Positions 249-61,990 of a DNA stretch of 64,000 nt are shown one piece after another. Source of the DNA: Chiloscyllium plagiosum. Taxonomy: Eukaryota. The notes beneath the pieces are model-generated. The model saw nothing but the letters and a program-made list of their open reading frames with translations, ran no database searches and had not been told where the DNA came from. Position 1 is the stretch's first letter; every line of letters begins with the position of its first letter. The stretch covers positions 9,029,306 to 9,093,305 of the forward strand of contig NC_057755.1 in assembly GCF_004010195.1 (NCBI RefSeq), read 5' to 3'. The position numbers and the translations under genes were made by a program.

Positions 249-338
249 ACATGGTTTGGAGATGCTGGTGTTGGGCTGGGGTCTACAAAGTTAAAAATCA
301 AACAACATCAGGTTATGTTCCAACAGATTTACTTGGAA

Positions 339-375
339 GAACTAGCTTTCAGAGCGCTGCTCCTTCATTAGGTGG
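339..375 (-). ncRNA. Degenerate minimal hammerhead ribozyme motif in PLE terminal repeat
   Basis: Reverse complement CAC-CTAATGA-AGGAGCAGCGCTCT-GAAA-GCTA-GT; core G5 is changed to A, so probably inactive. Confidence 0.55.
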
Positions 376-2025
376 CTGTGGAGTATAAGATTGTAAGACA
401 CAAATTTGTAGCGAAAGTTCCATGTGTGATGCAACTGAAAATATATGTTGAAAATGACCTAGAATGTTTGTTAAGTCATCTTTTCAATGACCATGTTGGT
501 TTCAATTCTTTCATACATAAATCCCAGAAGCTTTTTATGAAATTTACATTCTCAAATGAACTTTAACAGTACGTGCCATGTCAACTCGGATCATGGATTG
601 AACATGTGAGGTGCGCAATGTTAGGCTGTTTGTGCCTAATGTTCAGACTGATTCTATTACTTAAAAAAAATGGATTTACAGAATCTAACATGGATTCACG
701 CAGTTTATCAGGAAAATAAACGTAATTCTTCAAGTAAAAATTCACCTCACAAGCGTGTGTGTGTGCGCGTGCATGCATGTGGGTATGTGTGTGTGCGGGG
801 GGAGGGGAATGACTGCCTGTGACAGAGTATGTATATATATCTGTGTGTGAGTGTAAAGAGGTATCAGTCTATGAGAGGGTGCGTGTGCGGTTATGGGTGG
901 AGATGAGTATGTGTGAGCATATAAGAGAGGGTTTATATGTGAGAGAAGGTTTGCGTGAGTGTATGGGCGTGTGTGTGTGTGTATATATGTGTGTGTGTGT
1001 AGTGCAGTGGGCTTACATGCACTGTAACATGAACACAAGTTCCCCAGTTGAGGCGATCCCCGTGGGTATTGAACTTGGCTATTAGCTTCTGCCCGACCAC
1101 ATTGCGTTGTTGCCTGTTGCGAAGTCCGCCTTGGAGAATGGTAACCCAAGGGTCCGAGGTCGAAAATCCTGGACTGCTGAAGTGTTCTCCGACTGGGAGG
1201 GAAAACTCATAGCTGGTGATTGTTGTGTGGTGTCCATTCATCTGTTGCCATAGCCTCTGTTTGTTCTTGCCAATGTACCATGCCTCAGGGCATGATTGCC
1301 TGTAGCGTATGAGAGAGACAACATTGCCCTGGTCACATGAGTAACATGCCACGTTAATGGTGGGTGGTGCCTCCTCGTGTAATGATATTATTTATGTTGA
1401 CACACTTACACGTCTTGCAGTGTCTGCCATGACAAAATTATATGTCCTGAAAGCCGGGAAGGTTGCAGCAAACTTTGATCTGTTTGAGGTTTGGTATTGT
1501 TTAAAGGCGAGAACTGAATGCATGGGGAAGGTCTTGGCAAGGTGCACATTTCCATTCATAATGTGTTACAGACTGTGATGGACATGCGCACATTTTCCAC
1601 TCCTGAAAAGTACTAGACAACGAAGGGTACCCTGTCAGTTGCAGCTCATGTGTGTCTCTTGAGGAGGTCATTATAGTTTCTCGCAGGGCACGTCTAACTT
1701 GGCGGCCGATGAGTTGAGCATCAGACTGTATTCTTATGTGGGCATCCCTGAGTACTTGCAAGTGCCCGTCATTTTCCTCTTCATCTGAACACATCCTGTG
1801 CATGCGTAGCGCTTATCTGTAGGGGATGGCTGTTTTAGTATGTTTTGGGTGGAAACTGGAGAAGTGTAGCACCATGAAGTTATCCGTGGGTTTGTGGTAG
1901 AGTCATGTGCTGAGTTGCCCATCCTTGATGTCGGTGCATGTATCGAAGAATAAGACAGACATGAATACGTAGTACATGGTGAATTTGATGTTGGGTTGAA
2001 ACTCGTTGATATCACTGTGTAGTTT

Positions 2026-2607
2026 TTTCAGTGACTCCTCGCCATGTGCCTAGAGGAAGAAAATGTCGTCAATATGCCTGGTGTATAGTGTTGGTTATCG
2101 GTCCGCGCAGAGAAGAAGTCTTGCTCGAACATGTGCATTCAAATGTTAGAATATCGGCGTGTACATTCTGTCCACATGGCTGTTTAATACGTTTGGATGA
2201 AGAACTGGTTATCAAAGGTGAAAACGTTGTGGTCGGGGATAACGTGGATGAGTTGTGCGATGGTGTTCAGAGATTGGCTGTTGTTAGTGTTGATTAGTGA
2301 GGCTGTTGCGGTGATGTTTCAGTGACCCTCGCCACGTGCCTAGAGGAAGAAAATGTCGTCAATATGCCTGGTGTATAGTGTTGGTTGTCGGTTCGCGCAG
2401 AGAAGAAGTCTTGCTCGAAAACGTGCATTCAAATGTTAGCATATCGGCGTGTACATTCTGTCCGCTTGGCTGTTTCATATGTCTGGATGAAGAACTGGTT
2501 ACCAAAGGTGAAAACGTTGTGGTCGGGGATAAAGTGGATGAGTTGTGTGATGGTGTTCAGAGATTGGCTGTTGTTAGTGTTGATTAGTGAGGCTGTTGCG
2601 GTGATGC
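2026..2607. repeat. Tandem duplication, about 291-bp unit, inside the PLE RT core
   Basis: tttcagtgac...gttgcggtgatg occurs at 2026-2316 and again from 2317; near-identical ORFs 2031..2297 and 2336..2587. Confidence 0.9.
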
Positions 2608-2709
2608 CGTCATTGTGGGGGATGCTGGTGTAGAGTGCTGAAACGTCCATTGTGACGAGGAATGTTCCCAGTTCAAACGGTCTGGGAGTGCTGAGACCCC
2701 ACAGGAGGG

Positions 2710-4810
2710 ACACTGCCCTGGGTGTGACATGCACGCTCAAACCCTCAGGAAATATATAAATGCCAGATTCATCAGCTGCATATACAAGATAGGTCAAAGC
2801 ATCACCATCAATCACAACGCAACACCATCCAAGTTCTCAAAATCAATCACAACATTGTCAGCAAAGGAATAGGTGAAGGAGGATAAATTTTTCATTCAGA
2901 ATAGAACACCATACTGCAAGAAAGTTACTGACAACTGAACAACCAGGAACATCAGGCAATTACCGGCTGATCCAACCAAAAAGCACACCCATGCACTAAA
3001 CACATTGATCAGACCTTTGGATCGAGTCCTTCGGAGTTCCCTATGCGCCGTCATCGCTTGAATTTCTCGCGTAGGGACCTCTCCTGCCTTCCGAAAATAC
3101 AAAAGCGAACACATCAGTATGTCCTATCGTTTCAGACAATGGGACCCTGTGTGAGAACCTCTCTGACTACGTCGAAGGCATCTTGAAACCCATCGTAATG
3201 GGTCCACCCAGCTTCTGCTGCGACACTACACATTTCTAACAGAAGCTCAGCACCCATGGACCAGTCAAAACACAACATTCCTCATCACAATGGATGTTAC
3301 AGCACTCTACACCAGCAACCCACCATGACGGCATCATAGCAATAGCCTCAATACTCAACGCCACCAACTGCCAATCTCCTAGCACCGCACTACAACTCAT
3401 CTGCTTTATCGCCAACTATAACATTTTAAACTTTGACAAATAGTTCTTCATGCAGACACACGGAACAGCAATGGAGATGAAATTTGCATCCCAATATGCT
3501 AACACGTTCATGTAAAGTTTCGAACAAGACTCCTTCTTTGCGCAGGACCTCCAAGCAGTACTATACACGAGGTATATTGACGACATTTTCATCCTATAGA
3601 CACATGGTGAGGAGTCAATGAAACAACTGCACAGTGATATCAATGAGTTTCATCTCACCATCAAACTCACCATGGACTAGTCTTTAGCATCTGCCTTATT
3701 CCTGCACATATGCATCGCCGTCTAGGATGGGCACCTTCGCATCTCGCGCTAACGCAAACCCACAGATAACCACATGATGCTACATTTCTCCAGCTTCCAC
3801 CCAAAACATATTGAAACAGCTATCCCCTACGGACAAAACCACACTTACACAGGATCTGTTCTGATGAGGAGGAACGTGACGGGCACTTGGAAATACTCAA
3901 GGAAGCCCTCATAAGAACGGGGCACTTTGCCTAACTCATCAACAGCCAGTTCAGACATGCCATCGCGAGAAACCATGTTGACCTCCTCAGGAGACGACAT
4001 GAGCAGCAACCGACAGGCTATCCTTCGTTATCCAGTAATTCCTAGGTGTGGACAAACTACACCATGTTCTTTACAGTTTGCAAAACATTATCATTGAGGT
4101 TGTGCACCTTGCCTAGACATTCCCCAGGCCTCCAATTCTCTCCTTTACACAAACACCAAACCTCAAACGGGTCATTGCTCGCAGCAAACTGCCCGGCTTT
4201 CAGGACAACATGATACAACACTGTCACGGCAGACACTGCAAGACATGTCAGAGTGTCGATACGGACACCACCATTACACATGGGAAAACCACCCACCATG
4301 TATGCGACAGGTACTCATGTGACTCGGCCAACATTGTCTATCATATACACTCCAGGCGAGGATACCCTGAGGTATGATATATTGGCGAGACTGAGCAGAG
4401 GCCACAACAATGGATGAATAGGCACCACACAACATTCAACAGACAAGAGTGTTCCCTCACAGTTGGTGAATACTTCAGCAATCCGGGATATCGACTTTGT
4501 ACTCCAAGGCAGACTTTGGAACAGGCAACAATGTAAAGTAGCTGAGCAGGGGTTGGTGACCAAGTTCGGGACCCATAATGATGGCCTCAACTGGGACCCG
4601 ACTGTACTACACACTTAATCTCACACACACATACACAGACCCATGCACTCACCCAGACACTCTCTCATACACAAGCTCTCTCATACGCTCACAGATGCAT
4701 AATCACACTCACGCCCACACACACACAACGTCTCAGACTTATACCCCTTTGCACTCATATACACACACTCTCAAAGGCACTCATAGCATCACACACATGC
4801 ACATATAATT
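2710..4810 (+). mobile_element. Penelope-like element, decayed, head-to-head with the minus copy; 3' end continues at 7245-7703
   Basis: TFLITMDVTALYTS (~3275), HGTAM.MKFASQYAN (~3460), RYIDDIF (~3570), YSCDSANIVY...*YIGETEQR (~4312-4400), then a CA-rich tail. Confidence 0.85.
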
Positions 4811-5009: not shown

Positions 5010-5231
5010 AACCTGACTAATTTACCCCATACTCTGTGCAATTGAGCATAGTTAATTCACGTGACCCACACATCTTTGGACTGTTGGAGGAAACAGAGAA
5101 CCCGGAGGAAACCCAAACAGATACAGGGGGAATGTGCAAACTCAACTCAGAAAGTCGTCTGAGGCAGGAGTCGAACCAGGGTCCTGGCGCTGCGAGGCTG
5201 CAGTGTTAACCACTGAGCCATTATGCTGCCC
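5010..5231 (-). mobile_element. HE1/V-SINE-type tRNA-derived SINE
   Basis: Reverse strand TGGCTCAGTGGTTAAC (A box) and GGTTCGACTCC (B box), followed by the V-SINE core. Confidence 0.75.
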
Positions 5232-6693: not shown

Positions 6694-7244
6694 ACACTTA
6701 TAAAAGACCCACAGTAGCCGTTCCTTGAATAAGCTCCAAATTTCAAGTGTGTCCATCCCTTGTAGTTTCCCTCCCTATCCTATGCGTCCTAAATCTTGCC
6801 TAAGTGCATTGCATTTCCCTCAGTTATATCTCTTTCCCTGCGGTATATACCTATCCCTGCCCATTGCCACTATATATAGTCACTATCACCAAAGTGTGCA
6901 CCTACCTCCAAATCTAAAACCTGGCCGGGTTCATTCCACAGGACCAAATCCAATATGGCGTCGCCCCTTGTTGGCCTGTCTACATACTGTGTCAGAAAAC
7001 ACTCATGCACACATTGAGCAAAAATTTACACATCTAAACTTCTTGAGCTATAGCATTCCCAGTCAACATTTGGGAAGTTAAAGTCCCCCATAACAACTAC
7101 CCTGTTCCTCTCGCTTCTATCAAGAATCATCTTTGATATCCTTTCCTCTGCAGCACGAGAACAATTCGTAGGTCTATAGAAAATTCCCAACGGAATGACC
7201 TCTCCTTTCCTGTTTCTAACCTCAGCCTAAACTACATCAGTGTG

Positions 7245-7703
7245 GTGAATTGTTATGTGCAGAATAAAATTGTATTTAACTCAAAAACTGCACGAATCCA
7301 AGCTAGATTCTGTAAATCACTTTTTAAAAAAGGAATAGAATCAGTCTGAACATTGGGGCACAGACAGCCTCACACAGGGCACATCACACCTTCAATGCAT
7401 TATCTTAGCTGACATGGCACCTCTTGCTGATGTTCACTTGAAAATGTAATGTTTTGAAAAAAACGTTTCTTAGATTTATGTATGGAAGAACTGAAACAAA
7501 CATAGTCATTCCAAAACATAAAAAAAGTCCAGTTCGTTTTCAATATGTAATTTCAGTTGCGTCACATTGTAAACTTTTGCCATAAATACTGTGTCTTACA
7601 AGCATATACTCTACAACCACCTGATGAATGAGCATCTCTCCAAAAGCTGCTGCGTCCAAATAAAACTGTTGGACTATAACCTGGTGTTGTGTAATTTTTT
7701 ACT
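7245..7703 (+). mobile_element. 3' terminal repeat of the plus-strand PLE, with a degenerate hammerhead motif at about 7618-7652
   Basis: Inverted counterpart of 290-750; CAC-CTGATGA-atgagcatctctcc-AAAA-GCT (GAAA mutated). Confidence 0.75.
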
Positions 7704-19884: not shown

Positions 19885-19983
19885 GAAAGTTGAAAAATGT
19901 GGTGCTAGAAAAACACAGCAGGCCAGGCAGCATCCGAGGAGCAGGAGGATCGACGTTTCGGGCATAAGCCCTTCTTCAGGAAT
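19885..19983 (-). mobile_element. Solo PLE-terminus insert of about 100 bp carrying a hammerhead motif
   Basis: Same family as the 59636 and 60968 elements; TGAGCAC at both flanks (19878-19884, 19983-19989). Confidence 0.75.
19948..19983 (-). ncRNA. Minimal type-I hammerhead ribozyme motif, core intact
   Basis: Reverse complement ATTC-CTGAAGA-A-GGGC TTAT GCCC-GAAA-CGTC-GATC: perfect stem II, palindromic ACGU stem III, GUC cleavage triplet. Confidence 0.75.
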
Positions 19984-20779
19984 GAGCACACTGAGAAGTC
20001 TATTGTGAACATACATTTTTATTAGGCATCATCAAAACCCCTGAATTAAAGAGGTGGATTTTAATGGTTTAGTGCTTTCAATGAAAACTTGTTGCTTATA
20101 AACAGGAGTACAGCAGCACAGAAAGAAATAAAATTGCAAAAGGACGTCAGTTAGTACATGTTTCAGAAATTAGAGACGAGGAGGATTATAATCTTAAACC
20201 AAGTATCCTTTGATGATGCCGAGAATTGAGTTTAATGAGCTCTTGTATTTGCATTTATGTTGTAGTAAGAGTGAGTTTCGTTTGTACATTGTGGTAGGCT
20301 TCCCAAGGGCAAATGAACCTGAAGGCATGTATTTAAAACTACAAAGGAATTCTGCAGAAGGTAGCCTATTTCAGTTGTGCCAGTGCGAGTCACAATGCAG
20401 ACACAGCAACAAATCTTCGCTGAAGGTTTTATGTTTACAATAACGTTGCTGTCATAAGAATAACCTGTCTCCTTCATGAAGCTTGCAAGGAGTTGTGACA
20501 ACTGGCAGAACTCTTCTGTCCTGCAAGGTTGCTGACAACGCCCGCGAAGTCGCGGTTGGCAGTGTCACTACTCCCGTCATGACACTCTCTCAGCTGCCGC
20601 AGGAAGGAGCTGCAGTTCACAGTATCAATGGGTTGGGGGCGAGGGCTGGTATGAGAGTCCACCGCTGAATGAGGGCCTGGAAGAGAGATTGATGAGGACG
20701 ATCGTCACGCCACCTTTGGAATATTGATGGCAGTTTACATCCCTCCTCTGGGAAGGATTATGTGAAACTCTAAAGGATT

Positions 20780-21255: not shown

Positions 21256-21649
21256 TGCAGCGTTCAATTTGGGGGGAGCCTCCCAGGAGGGTATCCAGTG
21301 TGGCCCGAAGAGCATCGGATCCCCAGATCGGTGCAGCTTCCCTTTCAGAAAATAGCGACCCGAAGTCGGTCATGGGAGCACTAGATGTGAAACCAAATCC
21401 AGAGCCTTTCGGCTGTGGGAACGGCTGTGAGGAGCTGTTTCAGATACCCACACCTGTGCTCGAAAAACCCACAGAGAAAAGGAGAAAAAGGAGAAAAAGG
21501 AAGGAATGTTGTTCGGGTGGCGATGGAAGGGGAGCAGGGCAGTAGGATGGTGCATTGGTGAGGAGCCCCTATCCCATCCACTCTTTTGAAAAGGCATTAC
21601 TCCTCGGGATCACAGGAACCGAGAGAGTCTGGTTCTACCGACAGTTTGG

Positions 21650-21948
21650 AGGAAGTGAGGACTGCAGATGATGGAGATCAGAGTCAAAAAGTGTAGTGCT
21701 GGAAAACCACAACCTGCCAGGCAGCATCCGAGGAGCAGGAGAGTCGGTGTTTCGACTTAATCTAGATTCACCACATTCCTGATGAAGGGCTTATGCTTGA
21801 GGAGCAGGAGAGTCGACGTTTCGTGTGTAAGCTCTTCATCAGGAATGTGGTGAATCCTGATAAATAGATTAAGTCGAAACACCGAATCTCCTGCTCCTCG
21901 GATGCTGCCTCTCCAGCTGTGATTTTCCAGCACTCCACTTCTTGACTC
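21650..21948. mobile_element. Palindromic PLE-terminus element with several hammerhead-like cores
   Basis: 21681-21796 is the reverse complement of about 21826-21948; CTGATGA at 21779 (+), CTGATGA...GAAACGTC at 21811-21846 (-), CTGATAA...GAAACACC at 21857-21883 (+). Confidence 0.8.
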
Positions 21949-22815: not shown

Positions 22816-24284
22816 CGTGTCTTCATTACTCCCAACACTACAGACTAGGCCAGACCCCCTCAGAACAGGGGTAGTGAAGCTTTATGATTTTCTAAGACAC
22901 TTTAAGATAAATACAAGAAAGTGCAAGAAATGGAGGGATATGGATCAAGGGCAGACAGAAGAGATACGTATAATTTGGTGACGTGTTCAGCACAACATCG
23001 TGGGTTGGATGCCTCGATCCTTTGCCGTACTATTTTATGTGCGACGTTCTATCACAAACAACAGAAGTTCAAGTTCAGTTCACTTTGGAACACGAATTCT
23101 GACGGACTGCCAGCAAGACTAATAATGTGCTTCCACCACTTCCCAGGGCCTTCTCAGGGCAAGCCAGTTCTGAATCGAAGCGACCAAGTCACCATGGACC
23201 CCATGTATTTTTATCTCTGGATGAGGCTGCTTTGAAGAGGCTGAGAGCGGAACAAAGTAAAACAGCAATTGAAGTCATAGTTTCCTCAGATTGCTCGATG
23301 ACTGCTTCTGCATGTTCAGAAAGCGCGCATCCCCCAAATTCAATAAATAAACAGTGATCATAGTCCCCGTTTCTGGAAACAAGCCATGCTGAACCTTTAG
23401 TTTTAAATAAGTGAATGCACAGTGCGAAAAGATCTGATTTAATGAAAACCCAAATGTTAAAAATGTCAAAACCTCTCTTAAAAACCTCACATTCCAAAGT
23501 TATGTTTGTCAGTGTTGTTCTAGTTGCAGAAGGAAGTTGAAAAGATAAGGAAGATTGTTGGTATACTGTTATTGTGTGACTGGACGGATCTCAATATACA
23601 ATCCCAAGAATCATATGAACAACGAATTTAAAATCATTACTTGATCTTACAATGTGAACGATTCTTCTTGGGAGAAGCTGCAGGAACAAGGACATCGCCT
23701 CACTAAAAAATAGAAGATGTCCATCCTTTGATTAAACTGGTGACACCAAAAGAGCGTAGTGTGTTAGTTTCCCTTTGCATTCTTCACGGTAATGCATGAA
23801 CCATGCAGGGACTGCACACGATCAGCAATATCATCTCAAGGTCCAACAGGGGGGAGATGACCCACAGTTAATATTGTTGGATTATTAATCGAAACACCCA
23901 AGTAATACTCTGGTGGACGTGTTTCCAAATCCCACCAAGGCTTGAGCCATTCTTCCTCATTATGGAGAGGAAGGAGCAGCCAAGGAAGCACAGATGATGA
24001 AACAATTGGAACAGAATGAGTTATCCATAGACTTTTTCTTGTCTACCCCATCATCATTTCTGTTAACTGCAAGCGGCTATGTACCCCACCTTATGGGGTG
24101 CACTCATGGAATCTCTGTTCTATCCCCCCAACACAAAAAAAGATAAATCCCTTGCTTTATTCAACAAATCCATCCATCTTCACAAAACGCGTCGGCGAGA
24201 CAAATATCATTTAGGAATAAATGAAAAGTCAGAAGACACCATTCTATATCTATATATTCTGCGGCGGTACATCTCCCTCCACTT

Positions 24285-24405
24285 CACCTGACCAATGACG
24301 AGTGCTCCAAAAGCTTGTGATTTTAAGTACATCTTTAGGACTATAACGTGGTGTCGTATGAGTTTTGTCTTTACCCATCCCAGTCCAAAACTGGCATCTC
24401 CACAT
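24285..24405 (+). mobile_element. Degenerate PLE terminal repeat (mirror copy at about 52200-52325)
   Basis: cacctgacca...gactataacgtggtgtcg...ccagtccaaaactggcatctcca, same family as 250-375. Confidence 0.6.
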
Positions 24406-26429
24406 CATTAAAGACTTAGAATATTTCACAATGACATCCCAAATATACTTCACTTGCACTTCGGTAACATTGTAAAATTGTGCACAGGACTCACCTCATC
24501 GGCAGTTCTATTGTCTAAATATCTGTCTGTAACAATACTGTAGTGCTGTTTATCCAATTTAACTTTCTAAACAAATTAAACTTCATCATTGACCACGCAA
24601 ACAAAATGCATTCACAAGACATTCCGGTCTAAGTCACCTTCCTCTTCCCTGATCACCTTATTGTCCACGGATTCCCTATTGCACTAGTTTGCTATTCATT
24701 CCCTTTCACAAGGAATATTTTCAAAAAAAGGTCACGCAGAGTAGTCTGAATGAGTTTTTCTTTCACAGCTTTTAATATTTAGCTAGAAAAGGGACAATGA
24801 TGGATCTTCCTTGACCTGAAGGTTCCTAGAGTTGTAACGTTTGTTCAGAGTGTCACAATCATTGATCCATCGAGGTGAGAACCTAGAGGAGAGAGGATGT
24901 GCTGGCGTACTGGTATACTGGTAACATCCGGGACAATATACCTATAGGTATATGTTTACATCTTACTGTTGCAGATGTTGAAATTCTTTTTTGATGAAAT
25001 TCAGCTGCATCCTTTCCGGGAGTTAATGAACTCCGACATCAGGTAATTTCTTGTCTACCCTGAAAACCACTTGTCCAGACAAACTCAATTTCCAACTGCA
25101 ATTTATATAATCGGACCAGGATTTACTTTCCATTCATCTCAATTACCAACCCACCTTGGATTCCATTGAACTCCTTGGAATGAAAACTAATCATTCTCAG
25201 GAAAATTTATTTGAGCACCTTGTGACCACACCGCTCAAGGCCTGAATGGTGACAATTATGAAGTGCTTGGACATGATAGGTTGACACGTTCTCCTTTGTG
25301 GAAGTTTAAGTTAAAAGGATAGATATTCAAAAGTGAAACTCAGTAGTTTAGTGATGATATAACAAAAAAAATATCATCCATAGGCGGGGTGGGGTCGGCA
25401 ATGTTCCTCCTCAGACGGGGGGTGGGGGGGGGGCGTTTTGGGGGGGTGAGATGAGAAACCTCACAACCTTTCGAAATTACTTGGATGTGCAGGTGTAGTG
25501 CAATAACATGCAAGACTACGGCTAGGTATATGAAATTGGAAAGGTTTAGTTAGTTGTGTATTTTTTCCCTGGTTTAGTACTGATGTAACAAAGAGCCTAT
25601 TCTGTGACATATGATTTCGTTAGCGCATAAGTGTTGTGAAAATACATTATCCTCATTTTAGTCTAATTCCCTCATGGATTTCTTCGACATTCACAGCTGT
25701 ATTTTATTCCAGTCCGTCAGTTGTAGATAAAAATCTAATGTCATCCGTGCATTTCCCTTTTGAGGTTTCTTTTTAGATGCATTCTTACAAGGTCCAAGTA
25801 AACTCATGGTTTCCCCACACACATTTCATCATACTCAATAACATGTCACAAACCAAACACTTTAGTTTTTAATTTTTGCTTCAGTATTTGTGCTTTCCTT
25901 TCTAAATTACGAGGAGAATTTGGGGTTGTCTATTCTTTACGGAGGATATTTACCTCCATTGCACTCCCAGTTTCTATCCTAACTGAATTGTAAAGGTGAT
26001 TGAAGAAAGCTTTAGCATTATGAATTAACTCTGAATCGTCTGACATTGTCGCTGCCTCTCATACACATGCAAATCTTTGGGCATAAACATGGAACTTTGG
26101 TTTTAGATGAATGAAAAGAGGAGGTTCCAAACCTGTGGCATATTATCCTGATTTATTTAGTCGTGGAAGGGGGACGTCCTGCTGGCCAGAATTTCTTTTC
26201 CATTCTTAGTTGCCATAGAGAAGTTGGTGATGAGCTGCCTCCCAAAAACACTGCAGTCTGGACCGTTAAGAGATTAACTCATCGCCTGTGTCCTCGAATA
26301 AACAACAGTGCAAGACACAAGCTCTGTGGCTATTTCTCAACGTTGAATAGGGATCATCAAACAGTTTTTCCAGCATTGTGAGCACCTATAACAGACTCTA
26401 ATGGGTACAACAGTTCCATTATTATTGCA

Positions 26430-30307: not shown

Positions 30308-30720
30308 ATTACTGGGGATGGAGATGATCGGTCAGAGAGGAAGGTGGGGGAAGGTAGAAAAGGTGAATGGGGTGGGGATGGAGGTGACAGGTCAGGTGAC
30401 AGGACTTCTACAGTTTCTTCATTTCTCCTCCTCCACCTTACCTCAGTTACATCCTTCCAGGTCAGCACTTTCCTCATGACTTGACCTACCTGACAATCTC
30501 CTTTCCCACCTACCCACTCCACCCTCTTCTCTGACAAATCACCTCCATCCCCGCCCCATTCACCTATTGTGCTCTTTGCTACCTTCTCCCAAGTCCCACG
30601 CCTCCATTTATCTCTCCATCCTGGAGGCTCCCTGCCTCTATTCTTGATGACCTAAACGTCAATTTTCCTGCTCCTCGGATGCTGCCTGGCCTGTTGTGCT
30701 TTTCTAGCACCACTCTGATC
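30308..30720. mobile_element. PLE-terminus-derived element with internal inversion, truncating psi4
   Basis: Purine-rich arm mirrored by a pyrimidine-rich arm; ends ttcttgatga-cctaaacgtc...ggatgctgcctggcctg (hammerhead stem II deleted). Confidence 0.65.
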
Positions 30721-47380: not shown

Positions 47381-47592
47381 GCCATGCCTCTAGGAACGGA
47401 GAACAGCCAGGGAATGCCTAGAGGCATGGCATTCATCCACAGATTTAATCAGTAAGCACATCGATCTGGACCCAATATACCAACCACTGCAATGGACAGC
47501 TGGAACCAACAACCGGAAGTGGCAGATTCAAACCACTACAAATGCCGGAGAAAAATCACAGAAGCGCTGCACAAGAGGCTCCCAAGCACTGA
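47381..47592 (+). mobile_element. Partial copy of the palindromic PLE-derived element, including its inversion junction
   Basis: gccatgcctctaggaacggagaacagccagggaatgcctagaggcatggc; RTARECLEAWHSSTD..KHIDLDPIY (GIY-YIG C-terminus). Confidence 0.85.
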
Positions 47593-50745: not shown

Positions 50746-53700
50746 GACACAATCTGTGAAAATTCTTTCTGTCTGGATTCCGTATCAAGTGGTTCACATC
50801 GCACAATTTCCATTCAATTATTTGCTGTTGGAAAATCCAATTGTCTGAATGAGTGTTTTTCGGGAGAGACTAAAAATTTCCTTTGTATGGAGTTCATTTA
50901 CTCTGGGCAATGATGCAGCTTGAGTCAAAGTTAACCAATTTCTAGAATCATGACAATTTAAGTTGCACCCCAATGGGCAGAACTGATGTAACAATTTTCT
51001 TCTTTGAATTTAATGCAATCGTGTAAAGTGTACAAAAAATGGCAAAATAAGGACTACAGTCCGAGTCACACACATGACAACCAAATGAGAAGGCAGTTGC
51101 AAATATGTGTGAGAATGAGCATAACTTAAAAGAGGTTTTCAGCATCAACTGAATACAAGAAACAGATTCAGAGATTTTACTCTAAAGCTAAGGCTGAGGG
51201 AGTTCCATTGTTTTTATTCATATATTCACAGGACGTGGTCAGTGACGTCAGGACCAACACTAATGGCCTATCTCATCAGTATATTCCAGAGTGCAGCGAA
51301 ACATCAAAAACACTGCTGTGGATCTGGAATCACATGGAGGACTGAATATGGAAGATGGAAATGTAGTTTGCCAAAACGTTATTAGTCAATTAGTTTAGTT
51401 TATGACAATGGAGAGTGATCACATTTCTTGGTGTCAGAATCCAGAAACAGCGTTCTACAATGTATTGCAGGTCAGCAAGTGAACTTGTTGCTCTTCAAGA
51501 ATGTAGCTGAACGTCACCAGCTCAAGAGCAATCAGGGATGGGCAATAAAGTTCATGCCCAGTCAGCAATGGCCATGTAAAAATAAAAAATCGGCCAGGTA
51601 TTGTGTTTCTGAATTTCATCAAAATAGAACACATCATCTGCGACAATAACAAGTAAGTATATGCCCACAGATATAATGTCCTGTTTAACCAGTATAGTAG
51701 TACAACGGCACATCCTTTCTCCTCTATGTTCTCATCTCGATGGGTTAATGATTGTGATACTTTTAACAAACGTAACAACTGTGAGAACCTTCAAGTCAAG
51801 TAGGACACATCATTACCCCCTTCCAGGCTAAATAAAACAAGCTATGAAAGAAAAATCAACCGAACTACTCTGTGTGACCTAGATTTTTCTAGATTCCCTG
51901 TGAAAGGTAAATAATAGCAAATTAGTGCAATAAGGAATCCGTTGTTAATAAGGTGATCACGGAAGAGGAAGGTGATTTGAAATGGAAATTCTCCTGAATG
52001 CATGTTTTCTGAGTTAATACGAACTTAAATTTGTTCAGAAAGTAAAATTGGAGAAACAATACTACAGTATTGTTACATTCAGATATTTAGATAATAGAAC
52101 AGTCAATGAGGCGCGTCTGGAGCAGAATTCTACAAGGTTACCAAAGTGGAAGCGAAGTATATTAGGGATGTCATTGTGAACTTTTTAGAGTCCTAAATGA
52201 TGTGGCGATGCCAGTTTTGGACTGGGATGGATTAAGTCAAAAGTCACACGTCACCACGTTATAGTCCAATAGATGTACTTGAAATCACTAGCATTCGGAG
52301 CATTGGTCCTTGGTCAGGTGAAGTGGAGGGAGACGCACAGTCACATAATGTATAGATGTAGCATGGTTTCTCATGACTTTTCCTTTACTCCTAAATGATA
52401 CTCGTGTCGCCGACTCGTGTTCTGGAAATGAATGATTTGTTGAATAAAGCAACGGATTTATATTTTTTTGTTGCGTGGATAGTACACAGATTCATTAGGT
52501 GGGGTACGTATCCGTTGCAGTTAACAGAAATGATGTTAGGGGTAGACAAGAGAAATTCTAATGATAACTGTCTCACCCATCCCTTCCAATTGTTTAATGG
52601 TCTGTGCTTTGTTGACTACTCCTACCTGTCAACAATGAGAAAGAATGGCTCAAGCCATCGTAGTATTTGAACACAGTGCCACCAGAGTATTACTTGGATG
52701 TTTGGATTAATAATTCAACAATAGTAACACTGGGTCATCTCTTCCCTCTTGGACCTTGAGATAATACTGCTGATCGAGTGTATGGTTCATGAATTCCTGT
52801 GGAGAATGCAAATGAAAACTAAAGCACGATGCACTTCTGATGTCACCAATTTAATCAAAGGATGGACATCTTCTCTTTTATTGCTGAGAAGATGTCCTTG
52901 TTCCTGCAGCTTCTACCAAGAAGAGTCGTTCACATTGTAATATCAAGTCATGATTATAAATTCGTTTTTAGTAAAGTTCTTGCGATTGGATATTGAGACC
53001 TATCCAGTCATAAAATAACAGTATACCAACAACGTTCCTTATCGTTCCAAATTTCTTCTACAGCTATAACAACACCAACAGACATATCTTTGTAATGTGA
53101 AGTGTTATTAGTTTTTGGATGTTCATTAAATTTAGATATTCATTAAATCAGATCTTTTCGCACTGCGCATTCACCTAATTAAAACTACAAGTTCAGCATC
53201 GCTTGTTCTCTGAACAGGCGAATATGACCACGTTATTTAGAGAATTTGGAAGGTGCGTGCTTTCTGAATGCAGATAGACAAGCAGTAGTCAAGCAATCTG
53301 AGGAAACTATGACTTCAATAACTGTTTCATTCTGTTCCTCTCTCAGCCTCTTCAAAGCAGTTTCATCCAGAGATTAAAATGCATGGGATCCATGGTGACA
53401 TGGTCGCTTCGATTCAGAATTGGCTTGGTTCGAGGAGGTAGTGGGAAGTGGTGGAAGCACAGTTTTAGTCTTGCAGTCAGTCCATCAGAATTTGTGTTTC
53501 AAAATGACCTGAACTTGAACTTCTGTTGTTTGTGATAGGACATAGGATAGTGTAACAAAGGATCGAGGCATCCAGCCCACACTGTTGTGCTGAACATGAC
53601 ACCATACTATCCGTATCCCTTCTTCCTGCCCTTGATCCATATCGCTCCATTCTGTGCATGTTATTGTGCTTATCTTAAAGTGCTTTAGAAATCTCTAATG

Positions 53701-55325
53701 TATCGGCCTCCATCACCACCCCTGGTAATGTGTTCCAGTTCATTGTTAACATCTTTGTAAAAACTAGTGCGCCTGCCAACTCCTTTTCATTTTCTCCCAC
53801 TCACCTGAATGCATGCCACCCCGTATTAGAAATTTCTGCTCTGGGAAAAAGAAGAAATTCAGATTGTCAATCCTATCTATGAATGTTCCCACATTCCACA
53901 ATGTGAGTCTGTAATGACGTCCTCTGGAGACAGACACAGGATGCGACAGCGAATGTTCCCTTCGTTGACTGGTAATTCCTGGGAGTAGAGAAACTGTGCC
54001 ATGTTCTTCGCAGCTTGCAACACATCATCGATGAGGATGAGCAACTAACCAAGGTCTGCCCGACGCCCCCACTTCTCACCTTTAACTAACTCCCAAAACG
54101 TGAACACTCCATGGTTTGCAGCAAACTGTCCAGCCTTCAGGACAACATCGAATACAACACCATACAACCCTATAATAGCAAGCACTGCAAGGTATATCGG
54201 AATGTCGACATGGCTACTACTATAACTCTTGGGGACACAACCCATGACGGGGCAGCAAGTAATCATGAGACTCGGCCAGTGTTGTCTCACTCATAAGATG
54301 CAGGCAATGATGCCTGGGGCATGGTACTTGGGCAAGAGTAAGCAGTCACTATGACAATGGATGAGTGGACACCACGCAACAGTCGCCAGAGAGCAATCTC
54401 CTATCTCATTCTGGAACAGTTCAGAAGTAAAGGGCATTGAGTCGTGGATCTTTCACTAACCATTTTCCAAGGCGACTTCGGGATACACAACAATACAGAG
54501 TCACCGAGTATAGGCTGATAGCCATGTTTGATACCCATGATGATGGTCTTGAATGGAATCTTAGGTTAATGACTTATGACAGGTGGCCCCATTATACGAT
54601 ACACTCTTGCACATAAACCCACACACCAGAAAGATACGCACACAACCTTATACATGATCGCACTCGCACACTCACGTAGATGCTCTCTCATATGAATGCA
54701 ATTTCAGATGCACACAAACGTACATTCACATTCAATACCCACTCTCTGACAGACATATACTCTGTCATATTTGCACGATCACACTTTCAAGCACGCACAC
54801 ACGCACTCAGACTTTCTCTCCCTCTCTACCACACACATACTCTCACACACATTTACACACACAGGTGCACACCTACACTCTCACGTTCTCTCTCTCTCTC
54901 CCTCACACACATATAAATGCACGTACACACACATATACGTCTATGGTATGAATTTGCAAATTCAGATGAGCAGATGCATTTTTTTAAAAAACACACAATC
55001 TGTAGGCAGTCAGTCAATGTGACATCATATAATTTCATATTTTAGAAATACAACCAGTCTGACTCATATTTATAATACAGACAGATTCTAACCTCACAAC
55101 TTCAATGCATTGTCTGTACCGATATGTCACTTTTTTAACAAAAACATTTATCTCGCGAATGTGACTTGCAAATGCTTTGGGATTTACATATTAATGATTT
55201 GAAACATATAGCCCCATTCTAAATGATTAAGACTGAACAGCAATCTAGGTTTGTTCAATAGATTGCATCAGTTGTACAACAATCTTATCTGTTGTGTTTC
55301 TGTTCGCCAAGCTGGGAATTTGTTT

Positions 55326-55365
55326 GCAGACGTTTCGTCTCCTGTCTAGGTAACATCCTCAGTGC
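55326..55365 (-). ncRNA. Minimal type-I hammerhead ribozyme motif, core intact
   Basis: Reverse complement GCA-CTGAGGA-TGTTACCTAGACAGGAGAC-GAAA-CGTC-TGC; stem I GCA/TGC. Confidence 0.78.
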
Positions 55366-55715
55366 TTGGGAGCCTCCTGTGAAGCGCTTCTGTGATCTTT
55401 CCTCCGGCATTTGTAGTGGATTGAATCTGCCACTTCCGGTTGTTAGTTCCAGCTGTCCGTTGCAATGGTGGGTATATTGGGTCCAGGCCGATGTGCTTAT
55501 TGATTGAATCTGTGGTTGAGTGCCATGCTTCCAGGAATGGAGAACAGCCAGGGAAAGCCTAGAGGCATCGCATTCATCCACAGATTCAATCGGCCTGGAC
55601 CCAATATACCCACCATTGCAACGGACAGCTGGAACTAACAACCGGAAGTGGCAGATTCAATCCACTACAAAAGCCGGAGGAAAGATCACAGAAGCGCTTC
55701 ACAGGAGGCTTCCAA

Positions 55716-55755
55716 GCACTGAGGATGTCACCTAGACAGGGGATGAAACGTCTGC
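55716..55755 (+). ncRNA. Minimal type-I hammerhead ribozyme motif, core intact
   Basis: GCA-CTGAGGA-TGTCACCTAGACAGGGGAT-GAAA-CGTC-TGC; predicted cleavage after C55752. Confidence 0.78.
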
Positions 55756-56744
55756 AACACAAATTTCCAGCTCGGTGAACAGAACCACAACAATGAGCAC
55801 CCGAGCTACAAATCTTCTCACAAACTTTGAACAATTTTATATTTTAGTAGGAATGCTGTGCCCTATGATCCTGCCCCTCCAGCGAGGTGATGAAGAAGCA
55901 GTTCTCCAAAGGCTTGTACTTCCAAATAACCATGTTGGACTCTACCCTGATTTTGTGTATTTTTTTAAACGTTGTCCACCCCAGCCCAATCCCAGCATCT
56001 TCACGACATCAAATTTCCCCTCAGCCTCTGCTGCTCAGAAGAAAACAACTCGAGTTCTTCTAGCCTCTCTTTTCAGCTCACACCGTCTATCCAGGCAGAA
56101 TTCTGATAAACCACTTCTGCATCCTCTCCAAAGTTTCCAGATTCTTCTTGTAATGCTGTGAGCAGACTTTAACGCAAAGCTGTCAGTGTGGCCAAACAAA
56201 CGTTTACTAAAAATGCAACACAGCATGTTGTGTCCTCTCCTCAATTCCCCGACCAATAAAGACAAGCATGCCACATGCCCTCTTTACCAGCCAATCACCT
56301 TGCATGGCCACTTTCATATAAGATCTCTCTGTACATCAGTGTTGTTCCGGGTCCTGTCATTAGCTGTATACTTTTCCTTAACATTTGATCTCCCAAAGTA
56401 ACAATTAGTAAGTTCCCTGTGCGTGCTATACCTAGGTACTAGTTACTGCGACTCATTTCCAAGACATCCAAATCCTTCTGCACTGAAACACTCAGATGTT
56501 TCTCTTCATTTCGATAATAATTTGCCTTTCCCTTCCTCCAATTAAAATGGACATCCTCTCAATTATCTGTGATAAAGATAATCTGCTAATTTTTGCCCTA
56601 TTATCCATAACGACTTTGTAAATTTTTAAATTCTTCACTACATATGACGTCCATAACGTATTATTGTGTAATCTGCAAATTTATTGTGGTGTGGATGACG
56701 CCTCATGCTCGGAGGTGCCTGGTTTAGTTGAAGGGGACTATGGT

Positions 56745-57468: not shown

Positions 57469-57541
57469 GGTCTATTAATTGCTCTCAAATACGTTCCAAT
57501 GAAGCCATCAATCTTGGTACATTTCCAACAATCTTCAGAGA

Positions 57542-57611
57542 ATGGTGCAGCCAATAATTGTCCAGTTAAAAATAATTTACTACCCGATTCTAGCAGCCTT
57601 TGGCATTCCTG
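57542..57611 (+). CDS. GPR139-like GPCR gene B, exon 1 (MVQPIIVQLKIIYYPILAAFGIP)
   Basis: ATG at 57542, 70 nt, donor G|gtaagt; in frame with exon 2. Confidence 0.9.
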
Positions 57612-59635
57612 GTAAGTCAGTAATATTCTATTGTTTCACACGATCATTGTATTGTTACAGCGCAGAAAGGGATGTCTAACCCCCTGCTATGCTTTTTGAC
57701 AGTTTCAAACACTGCGGTCAATGAAGATCGCTGAGACACATAGAAAGTAGGGGCAGGAGGAGGTTATTTAGTCCTTCAAATTGGATTGCATTCGTAAATG
57801 AATTGGTGACCTCCAATTTGTAGTTAGACCAGGGAGTCAATAAAGTAACGAGAAAGTTACCACTTACTTATAAAAGAATGATGCATAATATAGAGAGGGC
57901 ACGCTGCAAATATACAAGGCATTAGAGAGTCTGCACAAGGAGCATTGTTTAACATTTAGTGCCCCTTACCTGAGAAGATGTATTCTTATATTGCAGTCAG
58001 ACCTGGTTCATTCGATTGATGCTAGAAATGAAGGTTTTGACTTTCGAAGAGAAACTGAACACTTTAAGCCATTACTCTCTGGAATTTAGAAGGCTGTGTA
58101 GAGAACTAACTGTGGTATATCGGAAGCTAAAAAGAGCCAGCAGAGTAGATGTCGTCTGGATACTTACTTTTTGGCACATCTGGAAGAGATTTTGCCTTTT
58201 TAGTCCGAGGGGAAGCAGAATTAAAACAGAGATGAGAAGGACCTACTTCCCTCAAAGGGCCGTAAATCTGTGTAATTCACAACACCATTGTATGGTAAAT
58301 GTTGAGAAAGTAAATAAATGTAAGCAAGGAATAGAACATTTTGTAATGATTAATGTGCTGCTGGGCTGTGGAGAATAGGCCACCAAGTGAGACCGAGATG
58401 AAATTAGTCATCATGACATCAAGTTCTGGAACAGGATGGAAGGACTGAATGGCCTCCCCGCTCCTCGGTCTTATTTTGTACATTCTAATCTCGTCAGTAG
58501 TTTCACATCTTACTGAATGCATGGTAGCTCTGAGTGAACGCAATATTCCAGCTGAGGCAGAAGTAGTACTTTACACACATTGAACATAAACTGCTTGCAC
58601 ATGATCTACGTGTCCATAACAATTAACTGAAGTAATTTGCAAATCAGTCTGACAACCTATCCCGGCAATGTCAGTAACGCATCCACCCAGTTCCACTTCA
58701 TCAGTTTTCCATGGCAATACATTATTAAAATATGAAAGTATTGCAGTAATTCAATCAAATCATATAATCAATTCGCTGTCTTATTTAATTCGAGAATTTC
58801 ACTGAATAAATAATTGTGTAGTGCATGAGAGCCGGCTACATGAAGTAATTGACAGGGATAACATCATAGACACAGAATGGATACATTTGTTTTTGATGAT
58901 ACCTGTGAATGGATACTCTTTGTATGAATGTTGTGGTTATGTCGTACAATCAAAGTAGTACACCATTTATTGGAGATAAAGCAAGGGAACTGGGGGAGGG
59001 GGGGTGCATTTAAAATCTAAAATTCAAAAAGTTCAAGGATCTGTTGATGCTACTATTAGGAAATGGAGAATGAACCTTAACTTTGATAGTCGGCAATTTG
59101 AATCAAAAAGGTGAGATGATAATGCCCAGCCATCTTCCATTAGGACTGGAAACGAGTATTGTTTACAGGTTTGGGCAACCCAACTGATAGATGAAGTCAA
59201 GGATGCTTTAGTGAAGTTGTGAATTGCGTTACTTAATGAATCTAAGATCAAAGAAGAATGGGAGATGAATATTCGATTAATACAAGACCCTATGCAAATA
59301 TTGAACATGAAGAGGAGTTTTGATATAATCAGAAGAAGCCAATTATTTATGCTGACATTTAGAACAGGAAACATAAACCTATTAAAATTAGATTATTTTA
59401 CAATTCTGTTTTCCCATTGGACAGAGAGGACAAGTGTTAGTTTAAAATGAGGATCACCTTGTCTCAGATGACTGGAGGGTGTCTGAAGGAGAGTCCTTCA
59501 TCGCAACCTCAATCAAACACGCTGTTCACATCACTCAGCTGACATAAACCAAATGTCCCCTCAGTAAAGTTAACTGAATTCATTGCACGACAGGTTTTAC
59601 ATCTCTATCCCATTATTGCCTCTTAATTTCTTGTA

Positions 59636-60009
59636 CTGAAGAATGTGTTGCCAGAAAAGCGCAGCAGGTCAGGCAGCATCCAAGGGGCAGGAGAATCGAC
59701 GTTTCGGTCATAAGCCCTTCTACAGGAATGAGGAGGTGTGCCAAGCAGGCTAAGCAGGAGGTTAAAGTATATGTCCCCACCCCCTCTCCGGCCTATCACC
59801 CTCATCTTAATCTCCTTCCACGTATCGCATTCCCAACGCCCCTCCCCCAAGTCCGACCTCCCTACATTTTATCTTAGCCTTCCTGAAGAAGGCCTTATGC
59901 CCGAAAAGTCGATTATCCTGCTCCTTGGATGCTGCCTGACCTGCTGCGCTTTTCCAGCAACACATTTTTCAGCTCTGATCTCCAGCATCTGCAGTCCTCA
60001 CTTTCTCCT
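59636..60009. mobile_element. Palindromic-ended PLE-derived element, 374 bp, with 15-bp TSD and two hammerhead motifs
   Basis: TCTTAATTTCTTGTA at 59621-59635 and 60010-60024; inverted ends of about 90 bp; cores at 59694-59729 (-, CTGTAGA) and 59880-59914 (+, CTGAAGA..GAAAAGTC). Confidence 0.88.
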
Positions 60010-60967
60010 TCTTAATTTCTTGTAGCTGTGAAACAATACTGTGGTGTTGATTCTGATGTATTAATGCATCTTTTCACAAAAGGAGATCAGACTTACTGTT
60101 AGGCACTGGCCCTAATCAGACCATCACTCATTAATTGTTATTCCTCCACAATTAGGATAATGACTCATATATTTTCCATTATGTTGTTTACCCATATTTA
60201 GCAAACAATAGAAAATGAAATATTTGCATATTTTATACTCCGTGGTATGTTTCAATTTGTAATTGACAACATCTTCTCAAAGACTAGCTCCAACATGGTA
60301 ACAAAAAAGATCTCTCCCAGATCAGGCTTTTTTTTTGTGTTTACATAGAAATTAACAGCTCAGTACTTAGAACTACTAGAAAATTTTCTACCTACTCACA
60401 ACATCATAGAACTGGACAGCATGGAACCACACTTTTGGTCCATGTCGTCCATGCCGACCAGATATTCTAAATCAAATGAGTCCTATTTGCCAACATTTGG
60501 CCATATCCCTTATACAAACTTCTTACTTGCGTGCCCACCCAGATGCCATTTAAATTTATATTTGGACAAGTCTCCACCCCTTCATCTGGCAGCTCATGCC
60601 ATACATGTTACACGCTCTGTGAAAAACCTCCCCCTGAAGACGCTTTTAATTATTTCCCTCTCTCCCTGAGCCCATGCCCTCTGGATTGGTCACCAATACC
60701 CTGGAAAATGATGTTGGTTATTCACACAATGTATGCCCCTCATGATTTCATTGACTTCGATAAGGTCACCCCTCAACCGACGATGCCCCAGGAAACATGG
60801 TCTCATTCTATTCATCCTCACCCTATCACTCAAATTCTCCAACCTTGACAGAATCCCTATAAATCCCTTTTGAGCCTTTCCATAGCTGGGTCCAAAGAAT
60901 ATTAATTTGATTCTTAAAACTGAGATTCAAGTTTCTGTACCTATGCTTTCTTGTTATTGAAGTAGAG

Positions 60968-61990
60968 CTAAAAATGTGTTGCTGGAACAGAGCAGCAGGT
61001 CAGACAGCATCCAGGGAACAGGAGAATCGACATTTCGAGCATAAGCCCTTCTTCAGGAATGAGGAAATAGATGATGTGTGTGGAGGTACAGGTGAATTTG
61101 TGGCGGATATGGAAGTTTCCTTTGGAGCGTTGGAGGGAAGTGAGGGGGGAGGTGTGGGCGCAAGTCTTGCACCTCCTGCGGTTGCAGGGAAAGGTGCCGG
61201 GAGTGGAGGTTGGGTTGGTGGGGGGTGTGGATCTGACGAGGGAGTCGCGGAGGGAGTGGTCTTTACGGAACGCTGATGGGGAGGGGAGGGAAATATATCC
61301 TTGTTGGTGGGATCCGTTTGGAGGTGGCAGAAATAACGGCGGGTGATACGCTGTACATGGAGATTGGTGGGGTGGTAGGTGAGGACCAGTGGGGTTCTGT
61401 CCTGGTGACGGTTGGAGGGGCGGGGCTCAAGGGCAGAGGAGCGAGAAGTGGAAGAGATGCGGTGGAGGGCATCATGTACAGCCCTCCACCATCCATGTAC
61501 AGCGTATCATCCGCCGTCATTTCCGCTACCTCCAAACGGATCCCACCACCAAGGATATATTTCCCTCCCCTCCACTCAACACTTCAACTCCCCCTCCCAC
61601 TCCACCAAGGATATGCAGGTCTTTGGACTCCTCCATCGCCAGACCACAACAACATGACGGTTGGAGGAAGAGCGCCTCATCTTCCGCCTAGGAACCCTCC
61701 AACCACAAGGGATGAACTCGGATTTCACCAGTTTCCTCATTTCCCCTCCCCCCACCTTGTCTCAGTCAAATCCCTTGAACTTAGCACTGCCTTCCTAACC
61801 TGCAATCTTCTTCCTGACCTCTCCGCGCCCACCCCACTCTGACCTATCACCCTCACCTTGACCTCTTTCCACCTATCCCATTTCCAACGCCCTCCCCCAA
61901 GTCCCTCCTCCCTACCTTTTATCTTAGCCTGCCAGCAACACATTTTCAGCTCTGATCTCCAGCATCTGCAGACCTCACTTTCTCCTCGAA
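60968..61990. mobile_element. Rearranged PLE-derived element, 1023 bp, with 15-bp TSD and internal inversion
   Basis: GTTATTGAAGTAGAG at 60953-60967 and 61991-62005; PLE peptides HVQRIIRRHFRYLQTDPTTKDIFP on both strands and KDMQVFGLLHRQ..RLEEERLIFRLGTLQPQGMN. Confidence 0.9.
61025..61060 (-). ncRNA. Minimal type-I hammerhead ribozyme motif
   Basis: Reverse complement ATTC-CTGAAGA-A-GGGCTTATGCTC-GAAA-TGTC-GATT. Confidence 0.65.

Follow-up and report, generated by a model that had tools for sequence, protein, structure and literature searches.

What does a hammerhead ribozyme do at the end of a retroelement, and how often does a genome hold one? The question is raised by a stretch of 64,000 nucleotides (nt) of the shark Chiloscyllium plagiosum (assembly GCF_004010195.1, contig NC_057755.1, positions 9,029,306 to 9,093,305, hereafter the window), for which an earlier note, made from the letters alone, had reported about a dozen hammerhead motifs at the termini of at least three families of Penelope-like elements (PLEs). 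The reading favoured here, to which a probability of about three in four is given, is that minimal type-I hammerheads lie in the pseudo-long terminal repeats (pLTRs) of three PLE families, most short copies of which are likely run-off DNA of the first 100-130 bases of a capped, uncut RNA. As for the ribozyme itself, it would most likely act on the messenger RNA (mRNA) of its own element, by decapping it or by providing ligatable ends, and not as the maker of the usual template.

The motif class is already known, minimal hammerhead motifs having been described in metazoan PLE pLTRs, in many families and as opposite-strand pairs (Cervera and De la Pena 2014, PMC4209133; what is said of this and the other cited sources holds for their accessible parts). 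The interest lies here in the scale, together with copy ends which give exact, testable positions for transcription start, polyadenylation, priming and cleavage. Inverted pLTRs and tails are standard for PLEs (PMC3846280), and in Drosophila virilis the pLTR holds an internal promoter, with a start an intron upstream of the hammerhead (PMC2377424). The function of the hammerhead in endonuclease-bearing PLEs is stated to be unclear (10.1101/2021.04.23.441226), a question which the copy ends would make testable, and for the regeneration of the pseudo-LTR no obvious mechanism beyond tandem formation is given (PMC2377424).

In the first instance, the nature of the motifs in the window was considered with a strict descriptor of the minimal type-I hammerhead, i.e., CUGANGA, a stem II of at least two pairs, GAAA, a palindromic N-N', U, H and a stem I of at least two pairs, where motif coordinates are those of C3 of CUGANGA and the plus-signed positions of copy ends, junctions and poly(A) sites are nucleotides behind the predicted cut. 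Three matches are found, at 19979(-), 55362(-) and 55719(+), or five if one core mismatch is allowed, against means of 0.0 (maximum 0) and 0.4 (maximum 2), respectively, in 40 dinucleotide shuffles. The 13 coordinates reported earlier all fall within three repeat termini, here families 1, 2 and 3, as had been proposed. The figure of about a dozen stands for the sites, all 13 of which are recovered, but not for intact motifs, only three passing the strict descriptor, nor for separate events, 55326/55716 and 59694/59880 being arms of single insertions. All five family-1 cores are broken, in line with their earlier description as degenerate, while family 2 counts one intact core, two kept with a damaged stem and three broken. 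Not listed before are two partial cores, 21779(+) and 47589(+), and an arm of family 2 which has lost its hammerhead (61482-61990). Rfam hammerhead models gave zero matches in the window at E<=1; the only Rfam match, to mir-5697 (35.9 bits for a gathering score of 50), was rejected as an artefact of a fold-back copy.

The hammerhead sites are PLE termini, with reverse transcriptase (RT) and putative GIY-YIG-type coding sequence adjoining each family. Protein searches from the window and from locus L001 returned RT-bearing relatives; Pfam RVT_1 was above cut-off in three of five stretches, namely two of family 1 and one of family 2, and the DKG motif of RT reads ADKG in families 1 and 2, the family-3 RT core not being recovered. 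Motifs resembling GIY-YIG (VY..YIGET or VY..IGQT) are visible in all three families, and Pfam GIY-YIG gave no match at E<=0.01 in the motif-holding family-1 stretch or in the broken fragments of the window. Between RT and endonuclease, families 1 and 2 exhibit a zinc-finger linker of the form CX2-5CXXC (CHGRRCKTC and CHRRNCKTC), also present in Nematis (10.1101/2021.04.23.441226), and share about 32% identity across RT and linker; no CX2-5CXXC was seen for family 3 in a stretch of 184 amino acids (L093) or, by eye, in longer upstream translations. By this linker motif, families 1 and 2 would be of Neptune type (or Nematis) and family 3 of Poseidon type. Two family-1 copies have an intact 5' end, one of which (C21), followed through both pLTRs, is a partial tandem with hammerheads 3,272 bp apart; its ATG follows the predicted cut by 92 nt, at the end of the long tail. 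Among the loci fetched, no full-length element of family 2 or 3 was found, family 2 giving the start region of the open reading frame (ORF) only. An inverted partner lies within 60 nt in 80 of 212 family-2 and 22 of 56 family-1 copies. One rearranged derivative of family 3, whose palindromic junction lies directly ahead of the hammerhead (e.g., C1:21525344 and C1:91181500), makes up 17 of the first 100 matches listed and is probably a non-autonomous family amplified on its own.

Exact-pattern counts over the whole genome (3.556 Gb), with reversed patterns as controls, gave 38,997 matches to one family-2 33-mer (control 0), 138,967 to the core with GAAACGTC (control 906) and 54,568 to the core with GAAAGCTH (control 543), the intact cores summing to 193,535, i.e., 54 per Mb, against 1,449 in controls, a few sites being counted twice. 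The very large number expected earlier for the genome, on the premise that the density of the window is typical, is thus found, and so is the premise: in an unbiased sample of 140 tiles from 28 sites (1,354,620 non-N bases), where termini were identified by their tails, 283 termini (212 of family 2, 56 of family 1 and 15 of family 3) give one per 4.8 kb, and the 13 tail-anchored termini of the window one per 4.9 kb. Extrapolation from the sample yields roughly 0.7 million termini per genome, which would constitute a fossil map of the RNA with, for each family, the start, the poly(A) site, two RT start sites and the cut site. By comparison, about 4,000 motifs were counted in the coelacanth and about 9,000 in Xenopus tropicalis with a stricter descriptor, numbers presented there as remarkable (PMC4209133), and 126,247 canonical motifs in tandem retrozymes of the axolotl (PMC7229834); the present count of pattern matches exceeds all three, though the descriptors differ.

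Only 64 of the 283 sample termini retain an intact core together with the palindrome, the core being broken or missing in 77% of copies, and solo copies seldom stand near another on the same strand: within 500 nt, such a neighbour accompanies 8/129 core-bearing copies of family 2, 2/37 of family 1 and 0/13 of family 3. As such, most genomic copies are inert remnants. The dinucleotide of stem III, in 160 sample matches, is CG in 58 and GC in 16, with CA (35) and TG (20) as products of CpG decay and the remaining 12 dinucleotides summing to 31. That the stems differ while core and palindrome are kept, as described earlier, is confirmed by covariation in 75 sample cores, where the three pairs of stem I are kept in 88, 85 and 60% of cases against 67, 51 and 42% in shuffles, 0 of 2000 shuffles reaching the observed level; as these cores descend from few lineages and are not 75 independent tests, this is to be taken as a pattern and not as a probability. 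The stem I types include CAC/GUG, UUC/GAA, GUU/AAC, GCA/UGC, CCA/UGG and UCA/UGA, the commonest being UUC/GAU (21/75), with U-U at the third pair. H17 is other than G in 74 of 75 cores, and the first pair of stem II is G-C in 54 and G-U in 15. The features of the minimal type-I hammerhead, namely a core of CUGANGA, GAAA and UH with stems I and II, are thus present, together with a palindromic, loopless stem III and one extra nucleotide after A9. Folding of the monomers gave stem II only, in part, an uninformative result for a non-canonical core. In locus L114 (950-1000, minus strand), two family-2a hammerheads stand head to tail 43 nt apart, and L171 and L117 are similar, with units of about 200-230 nt; such close pairs are natural candidates for a dimeric active ribozyme. 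In the family-1 core (e.g., L060), the AUG within CUGAUGA begins a reading frame of eight codons which precedes the main ORF and closes with a UAG lying across the predicted cut.

Where the copies begin bears directly on the RNA from which they were made, and in two families the 5' edge is sharp, standing 4 nt upstream of the core in family 2 and about 8 nt upstream in family 1. For family 2, 200 copies away from tile edges and gaps were considered, 32 of which, their flank being common to other copies, were set aside as other subfamilies. Relative to C3, the remaining 168 start more than 40 nt upstream (16), at -40 to -13 (8), at -12 to -1 (66, of which 20 at -4 and 13 at -3), at 0 to 11 (42), at 12 to 24 (13), at 25 to 31 (5, the cut being at 28) and further downstream (18). 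The flank is an inverted arm in 83 of these copies, and the non-inverted ones peak at the same place (23/85 at -8 to -3). For family 1, where 45 of 55 copies were kept, 17 start at -12 to -1 and none at -40 to -13. At the RNA level, run X21, a poly(A) single-cell library of which about 2% was read, shows on a family-2b copy a several-fold drop in depth at -4 with 126 loose-ended reads, both strands being covered, and a depth continuous over the cut.

The family-1 edge further carries an extra base. Genome-wide, 3,099 family-1 copies run from A(-8) with non-consensus bases at -10 and -11, and of these 1,318 carry G at -9, 292 carry A or T and 1,489 the consensus C, G being expected in 29% of the non-C cases; in a control, with the start moved 2 nt downstream, 43 G stood against 57 A or T (first 100 of 694, by eye), for an odds ratio of 6.0 (p 9e-17). 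An extra G at the 5' junctions of full-length LINE-1 copies has been interpreted as a copied cap (PMC11702581), and by analogy the extra G of family 1 likely marks a cap. A splice acceptor as the cause of the 5' edge was rejected, no AG standing ahead of the edge in families 1, 2a and 2c. The sequence TCATTC at the family-2 edge is presumably initiator-like. In addition, a stretch inside stem III, AAACGTCG at +26..+33, resembles the downstream promoter element RGACGTGY (PMC2377424), as a resemblance only.

At the predicted cut, by contrast with the edge, no peak of copy starts is found, either in the sample or genome-wide, where family 2a gave 527 starts at +1, 452 at +4 and 141 at -2 (the anchors differ between positions, and the -2 anchor holds a CpG); GA microhomology accounts for many of the +1 junctions. 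From this absence it can be inferred that most copies likely come from capped, uncut RNA, a conclusion in line with in vitro findings on the Anolis element (PMC11167929).

A possible trace of cutting is nonetheless found in chimeras with U6 RNA, sought with a 13-base U6 motif followed, after 6-36 nt of any sequence, by the family-2 tail motif. The U6 junctions lie at +1 in 4/4 matches of family 2 and in the single match of family 1, none being found within 30 nt upstream of the core, and two unrelated families thus agree to the base on the junction. Rfam U6 scored above its gathering threshold in two of the five loci, the other three being short U6 3' pieces. Hammerhead cleavage leaves a 5'-OH end. 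The end of U6, for its part, bears a cyclic phosphate, and RtcB joins it to RNA with a 5'-OH (PMC6789731). Lying exactly at the predicted cut, the U6 junctions would provide indirect evidence of cleavage in vivo, while template switching at the 5' end of a cut RNA would yield an identical junction and a protein nuclease may also be responsible. The U6/LINE-1 chimeras (Moldovan et al. 2019, PMC6789731) are alike in that the U6 3' end (TTTTT) is joined to a 5'-truncated retroelement piece, but their junctions are variable, whereas here 5/5 fall at one predicted bond in two unrelated families. In locus L322 (1-700, minus strand; G000:C1:38727600-38728300), one of the three with a short U6 piece, the U6 3' end runs at the cut into 532 nt of family 2c, comprising tail and ORF start, and a second piece follows, again starting exactly at +1, so that one insertion holds two cut-site 5' ends; in L320 (315-566), U6 pieces in both orientations stand in one insertion beside a family-2 tail.

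At the other end, two genomic 3' ends lie about 35-40 nt apart, which fits the optional PLE tail of 30-40 nt. In 128 core-anchored family-1 copies, 57 end at +50..64, 54 at +85..104 and 4 at +30..39, an A-run following in 0/128; in family 2, the ends peak near +61-65 and +97. On a 5'-intact family-1 copy, X21 reads of the sense strand join poly(A) at +32 (509 reads) and +29 (393 reads), 902 in total, at a depth of 1,260-1,500 which is continuous across core and cut, though these reads may mark the ends of host transcripts and not of element mRNAs. This poly(A) site follows A(A/T)TAAA by 12-15 nt and is itself followed by a GU-rich stretch; the hexamer is present in 50/66 family-1, 15/103 family-2 and 0/36 family-3 copies. 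Internal oligo-dT priming was rejected as the source of the reads, the element having no A-run there and none following the 128 copy ends. As the family-1 poly(A) site is upstream of both genomic 3' ends, the latter were not copied from the poly(A) end of the mRNA, and would come either from the 5' tail copy or from read-through RNA; a poly(A) site ahead of the genomic 3' ends suggests an LTR-like R region. The poly(A) signal lies at L313:892-895, with equivalents in the window at about 311-314(-) and 7678-7681(+). Carried by tens of thousands of family-1 copies scattered through the genome, such signals could end host transcripts.

Taken together, a sequence of events can be proposed in which RNA polymerase II would start just ahead of stem I, making the hammerhead the first structure of the mRNA. 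Priming by the element's RT would take place on nicked target DNA, at either of two sites in the tail (about 55-60 and 93-98 nt behind the cut), much as the Anolis element does in vitro; the RT would then run about 100-130 nt to the cap and add a C opposite it, and most of these short complementary DNAs would integrate singly or as head-to-head pairs formed at both DNA ends. A minority of the RNAs would be cut, the active form being probably a dimer held together by the palindromic stem III and assisted by an element protein; cutting would take off a capped leader of 32-37 nt and leave a 5'-OH end sometimes joined to U6. Long copies would need a jump to the 3' repeat, or else read-through or circular RNA.

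An extension of this scheme, put forward only tentatively and with the odds against it, is that PLEs copy themselves by an LTR-like first strand transfer, with a family-1 R region of about 68 nt, exactly holding the ribozyme, at both ends of the mRNA. Retroviruses and LTR retrotransposons make a minus-strand strong-stop DNA, followed by a first strand transfer through the R region. The two are alike in that priming lies close to the 5' end, synthesis runs off at the cap and a repeat stretches between the cap and the poly(A) site (about 68 nt in family 1); they differ in that PLEs have no integrase and prime on target DNA, the transfer step in PLEs being hypothetical. In family 1, the mRNA would be capped 8 nt ahead of the core and polyadenylated about 30 nt past the cut; target-primed reverse transcription would start in the 5' tail and run off at the cap, and its product would either integrate as a strong-stop stub, hence hundreds of thousands of short copies, or jump to the 3' R and copy the body. 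With further jumps, partial tandems would arise and the pseudo-LTR would thereby be restored, and the ribozyme, whose cutting would require two R copies to meet, would serve as a switch which decaps the mRNA or opens R for the jump.

Of the rival explanations, the best to survive, though improbable, is the model of Cervera and De la Pena, where hammerheads excise a unit-length RNA which is circularised and becomes the main template. The U6 chimeras, with their ligatable or copyable cut ends, are in its favour, as are the two L322 pieces each starting exactly at +1 and the existence of partial tandems, and a religated circle would leave long copies unmarked at the cut. However, it predicts neither a stop 4-8 nt upstream of the core nor an extra G, the poly(A) RNA is intact across the cut, and insertion in vitro is independent of cleavage (PMC11167929), such that the model may apply to long copies only.

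Less probable still is that the short copies form an independent family, resembling either a short interspersed element (SINE) or a retrozyme, with its own short transcript mobilised in trans by PLEs. Short copies do outnumber long ones, the start site is kept, family 1 keeps the poly(A) signal (hexamer in 50/66), one rearranged family-3 derivative has been amplified and some short head-to-tail pairs exist; but in every subfamily the sequence and both 3' ends are common to the short copies and to the pLTRs of autonomous elements, the 3' ends lie 25-65 nt beyond the poly(A) site with an A-run in 0/128, and tandem arrays are rare. The weakest rival, highly implausible, holds that the 5' edge is made at the DNA level, by an endonuclease at ATT or by annealing at the near-palindrome TTCCTGAA, and would be uninformative on the RNA start: the Anolis endonuclease does prefer 5'-ATT-3' (PMC11167929) and the family-2 edge is at ATTC, with inverted junctions in half of the copies counted (83/168) and perfect GGAATTCC palindromes in 13 of the first 100 of 11,291, but family 1 has the same edge without ATT and with a strong extra G, and the peak persists in non-inverted family-2 copies.

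Several observations weigh against the capped, uncut RNA reading. On the side of the 5' edge, the counts were made after dropping 32/200 family-2 and 10/55 family-1 copies as other subfamilies, some of the family-1 edge G's can be templated by the inverted arm, and the G excess of family 2 is weak (28 G, 26 A, 11 T and 35 C in the first 100 of 11,291, by eye, with a script check on 30 loci), i.e., p 0.012, or 0.0002 without the 13 palindromic junctions, for an excess without matched control. Family 3 (3a) shows no sharp edge, its 803 matches being scattered and its sample copies numbering only 15. On the side of the ribozyme, the commonest family-2 subfamilies have a weak stem I (UUC/GAU), same-strand neighbours within 500 nt are as rare as stated above in families 2 and 1, and the best dimer given by RNAcofold differs from the double hammerhead for 7/7 motifs, a result which is uninformative since the core is non-canonical. 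The U6 evidence amounts to five loci, X21 reads on the family-2b and family-1 copies show no pile-up of molecule ends, and X21 may come from a related species.

The capped, uncut RNA reading can also be set against related systems. For the Poseidon element PAc of Anolis carolinensis (Frangieh et al. 2024, PMC11167929), the genomic tail is likewise defined by two sites within the RNA at which the RT starts, the uncut RNA is the main substrate, the hammerhead lies near the ORF start and RNA-sequencing ends are absent at the cut; that work differs in being in vitro and in assuming a multi-copy read-through mRNA, and the family-1 ORF begins 92 nt behind the cut and not within stem II. Non-LTR retrozymes are alike in their very high copy number and in their type-I hammerheads with a weak stem III, and are derived from or related to pLTRs (PMC7229834), but consist of head-to-tail arrays giving circular RNA, whereas here dispersed singles or head-to-head pairs are continuous with autonomous PLEs; head-to-tail arrays of at least two units, by which retrozymes are recognised, do not characterise the sample, as the neighbour counts given above show. 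One chondrichthyan has been sampled for tandem retrozymes (10.64898/2026.07.22.740005). The accessible part of PMC4209133 names no shark and analyses neither copy ends nor caps, poly(A) sites or U6 chimeras, and the accessible parts of PMC6155905 and PMC8455134 hold nothing on sharks and hammerheads. A literature search, from which subscription journals were mostly absent and where preprint supplements may hold counts, returned no paper on PLE hammerhead counts in a shark. With the same few subscription journals and with Repbase reports outside its scope, it returned no PLE copies with cap-G or strong-stop features, no PLE U6 junctions and no pLTR poly(A) site upstream of the tail.

Back in the window, family 1 (Neptune-type by its linker) is represented by several old insertions. 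An arm at 250..2704(-), delimited by tblastn and blastn with natural loci, comprises a broken RT (2704-1270), an endonuclease (1595-1047), the 3' untranslated region with pLTR, and a dead hammerhead at 340-374 (C3 371, core CUAAUGA), its long tail ending 93 nt behind the predicted cut. Head to head with it stand RT and endonuclease fragments at 2833..4598(+), of which the 3' untranslated region and pLTR at 7233..7703(+), with a dead hammerhead at 7618-7652 (C3 7621, AAAA replacing GAAA and G at position 17) and a short tail (+54), is probably the far end; the sites 339 and 7618 would then probably be two arms of one insertion, for which no target duplication was found. The old termini at 24275..24413(+) and 52197..52330(-), with cores at 24288(+) and 52317(-) both broken to CUGACCA, are duplicates of each other, the sites 24286 and 52288 lying inside one inverted segmental duplication of 2.1 kb and 80% identity (22889-25004 on the side of the former). 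Further family-1 pieces are RT-linker and endonuclease fragments at 53913..54583(+) and an old terminus at 55852..56003(+), whose core at 55887(+) is broken (GUGAUGA and AAAG).

Family 2 comprises, firstly, a short copy at 19890..19986(-) with a short tail and an intact minimal hammerhead at 19949-19983 (C3 19979), starting 7 nt upstream of C3 and with its predicted cut at 19952/19951, secondly, a fold-back insertion at 21648..21936 with cores at 21842(-), intact with a damaged stem II, and at 21779(+), partial, from which the sub-threshold mir-5697 match arises, and thirdly, a pLTR at 30478..30714(+) with stem II deleted (core at 30643). Three insertions of families 2 and 3 are head-to-head pairs with target duplications: (i) 59636..60007 (family 2, 17 bp), with one short and one long tail and both hammerheads mutated, namely CUGUAGA at 59725(-) and a stem III AAGU at 59883(+); (ii) 60968..61989 (family 2, 16 bp), where the minus arm consists of an RT-linker coding piece (61482-61106) and a hammerhead at 61056 with intact core and a stem III AUGU due to CpG decay, and the plus arm of an endonuclease piece with the hammerhead deleted; and (iii) 55290..55831 (family 3, Poseidon-type by the same token, 11 bp at 55278 and 55830), with both hammerheads, at 55362(-) and 55719(+), intact. 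An endonuclease end with pLTR of family 3 at 47394..47592(+) is truncated at CUGA.

Among 13 ORFs of the window, Pfam recognised two 7tm_1 genes and one weak Exo_endo_phos_2, the PLE fragments being unmatched; fragments resembling long interspersed elements are present as well. Single-exon rhodopsin-family receptor genes or remnants are clustered at 10229-11158(-), 62932-63861(+), 19202-19720, 22520-22764, 30652-31128, 41796-42009 and 56750-56878, with large inverted duplications around the cluster (10090-14276 with 57521-64000, and 22889-25004 with 51609-53691). Copies of a tRNA-like SINE, which we take to be HE1-like, lie at 5091-5183, 6552-6692, 8454-8594, 34583-34679 and 44659-45222, and another interrupts a family-1 tail in L316. 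Finally, fold-back copies, such as 21769-21854 in the window and the many head-to-head pairs, would give long RNA hairpins inside host transcripts, possible substrates for editing or for small RNAs.

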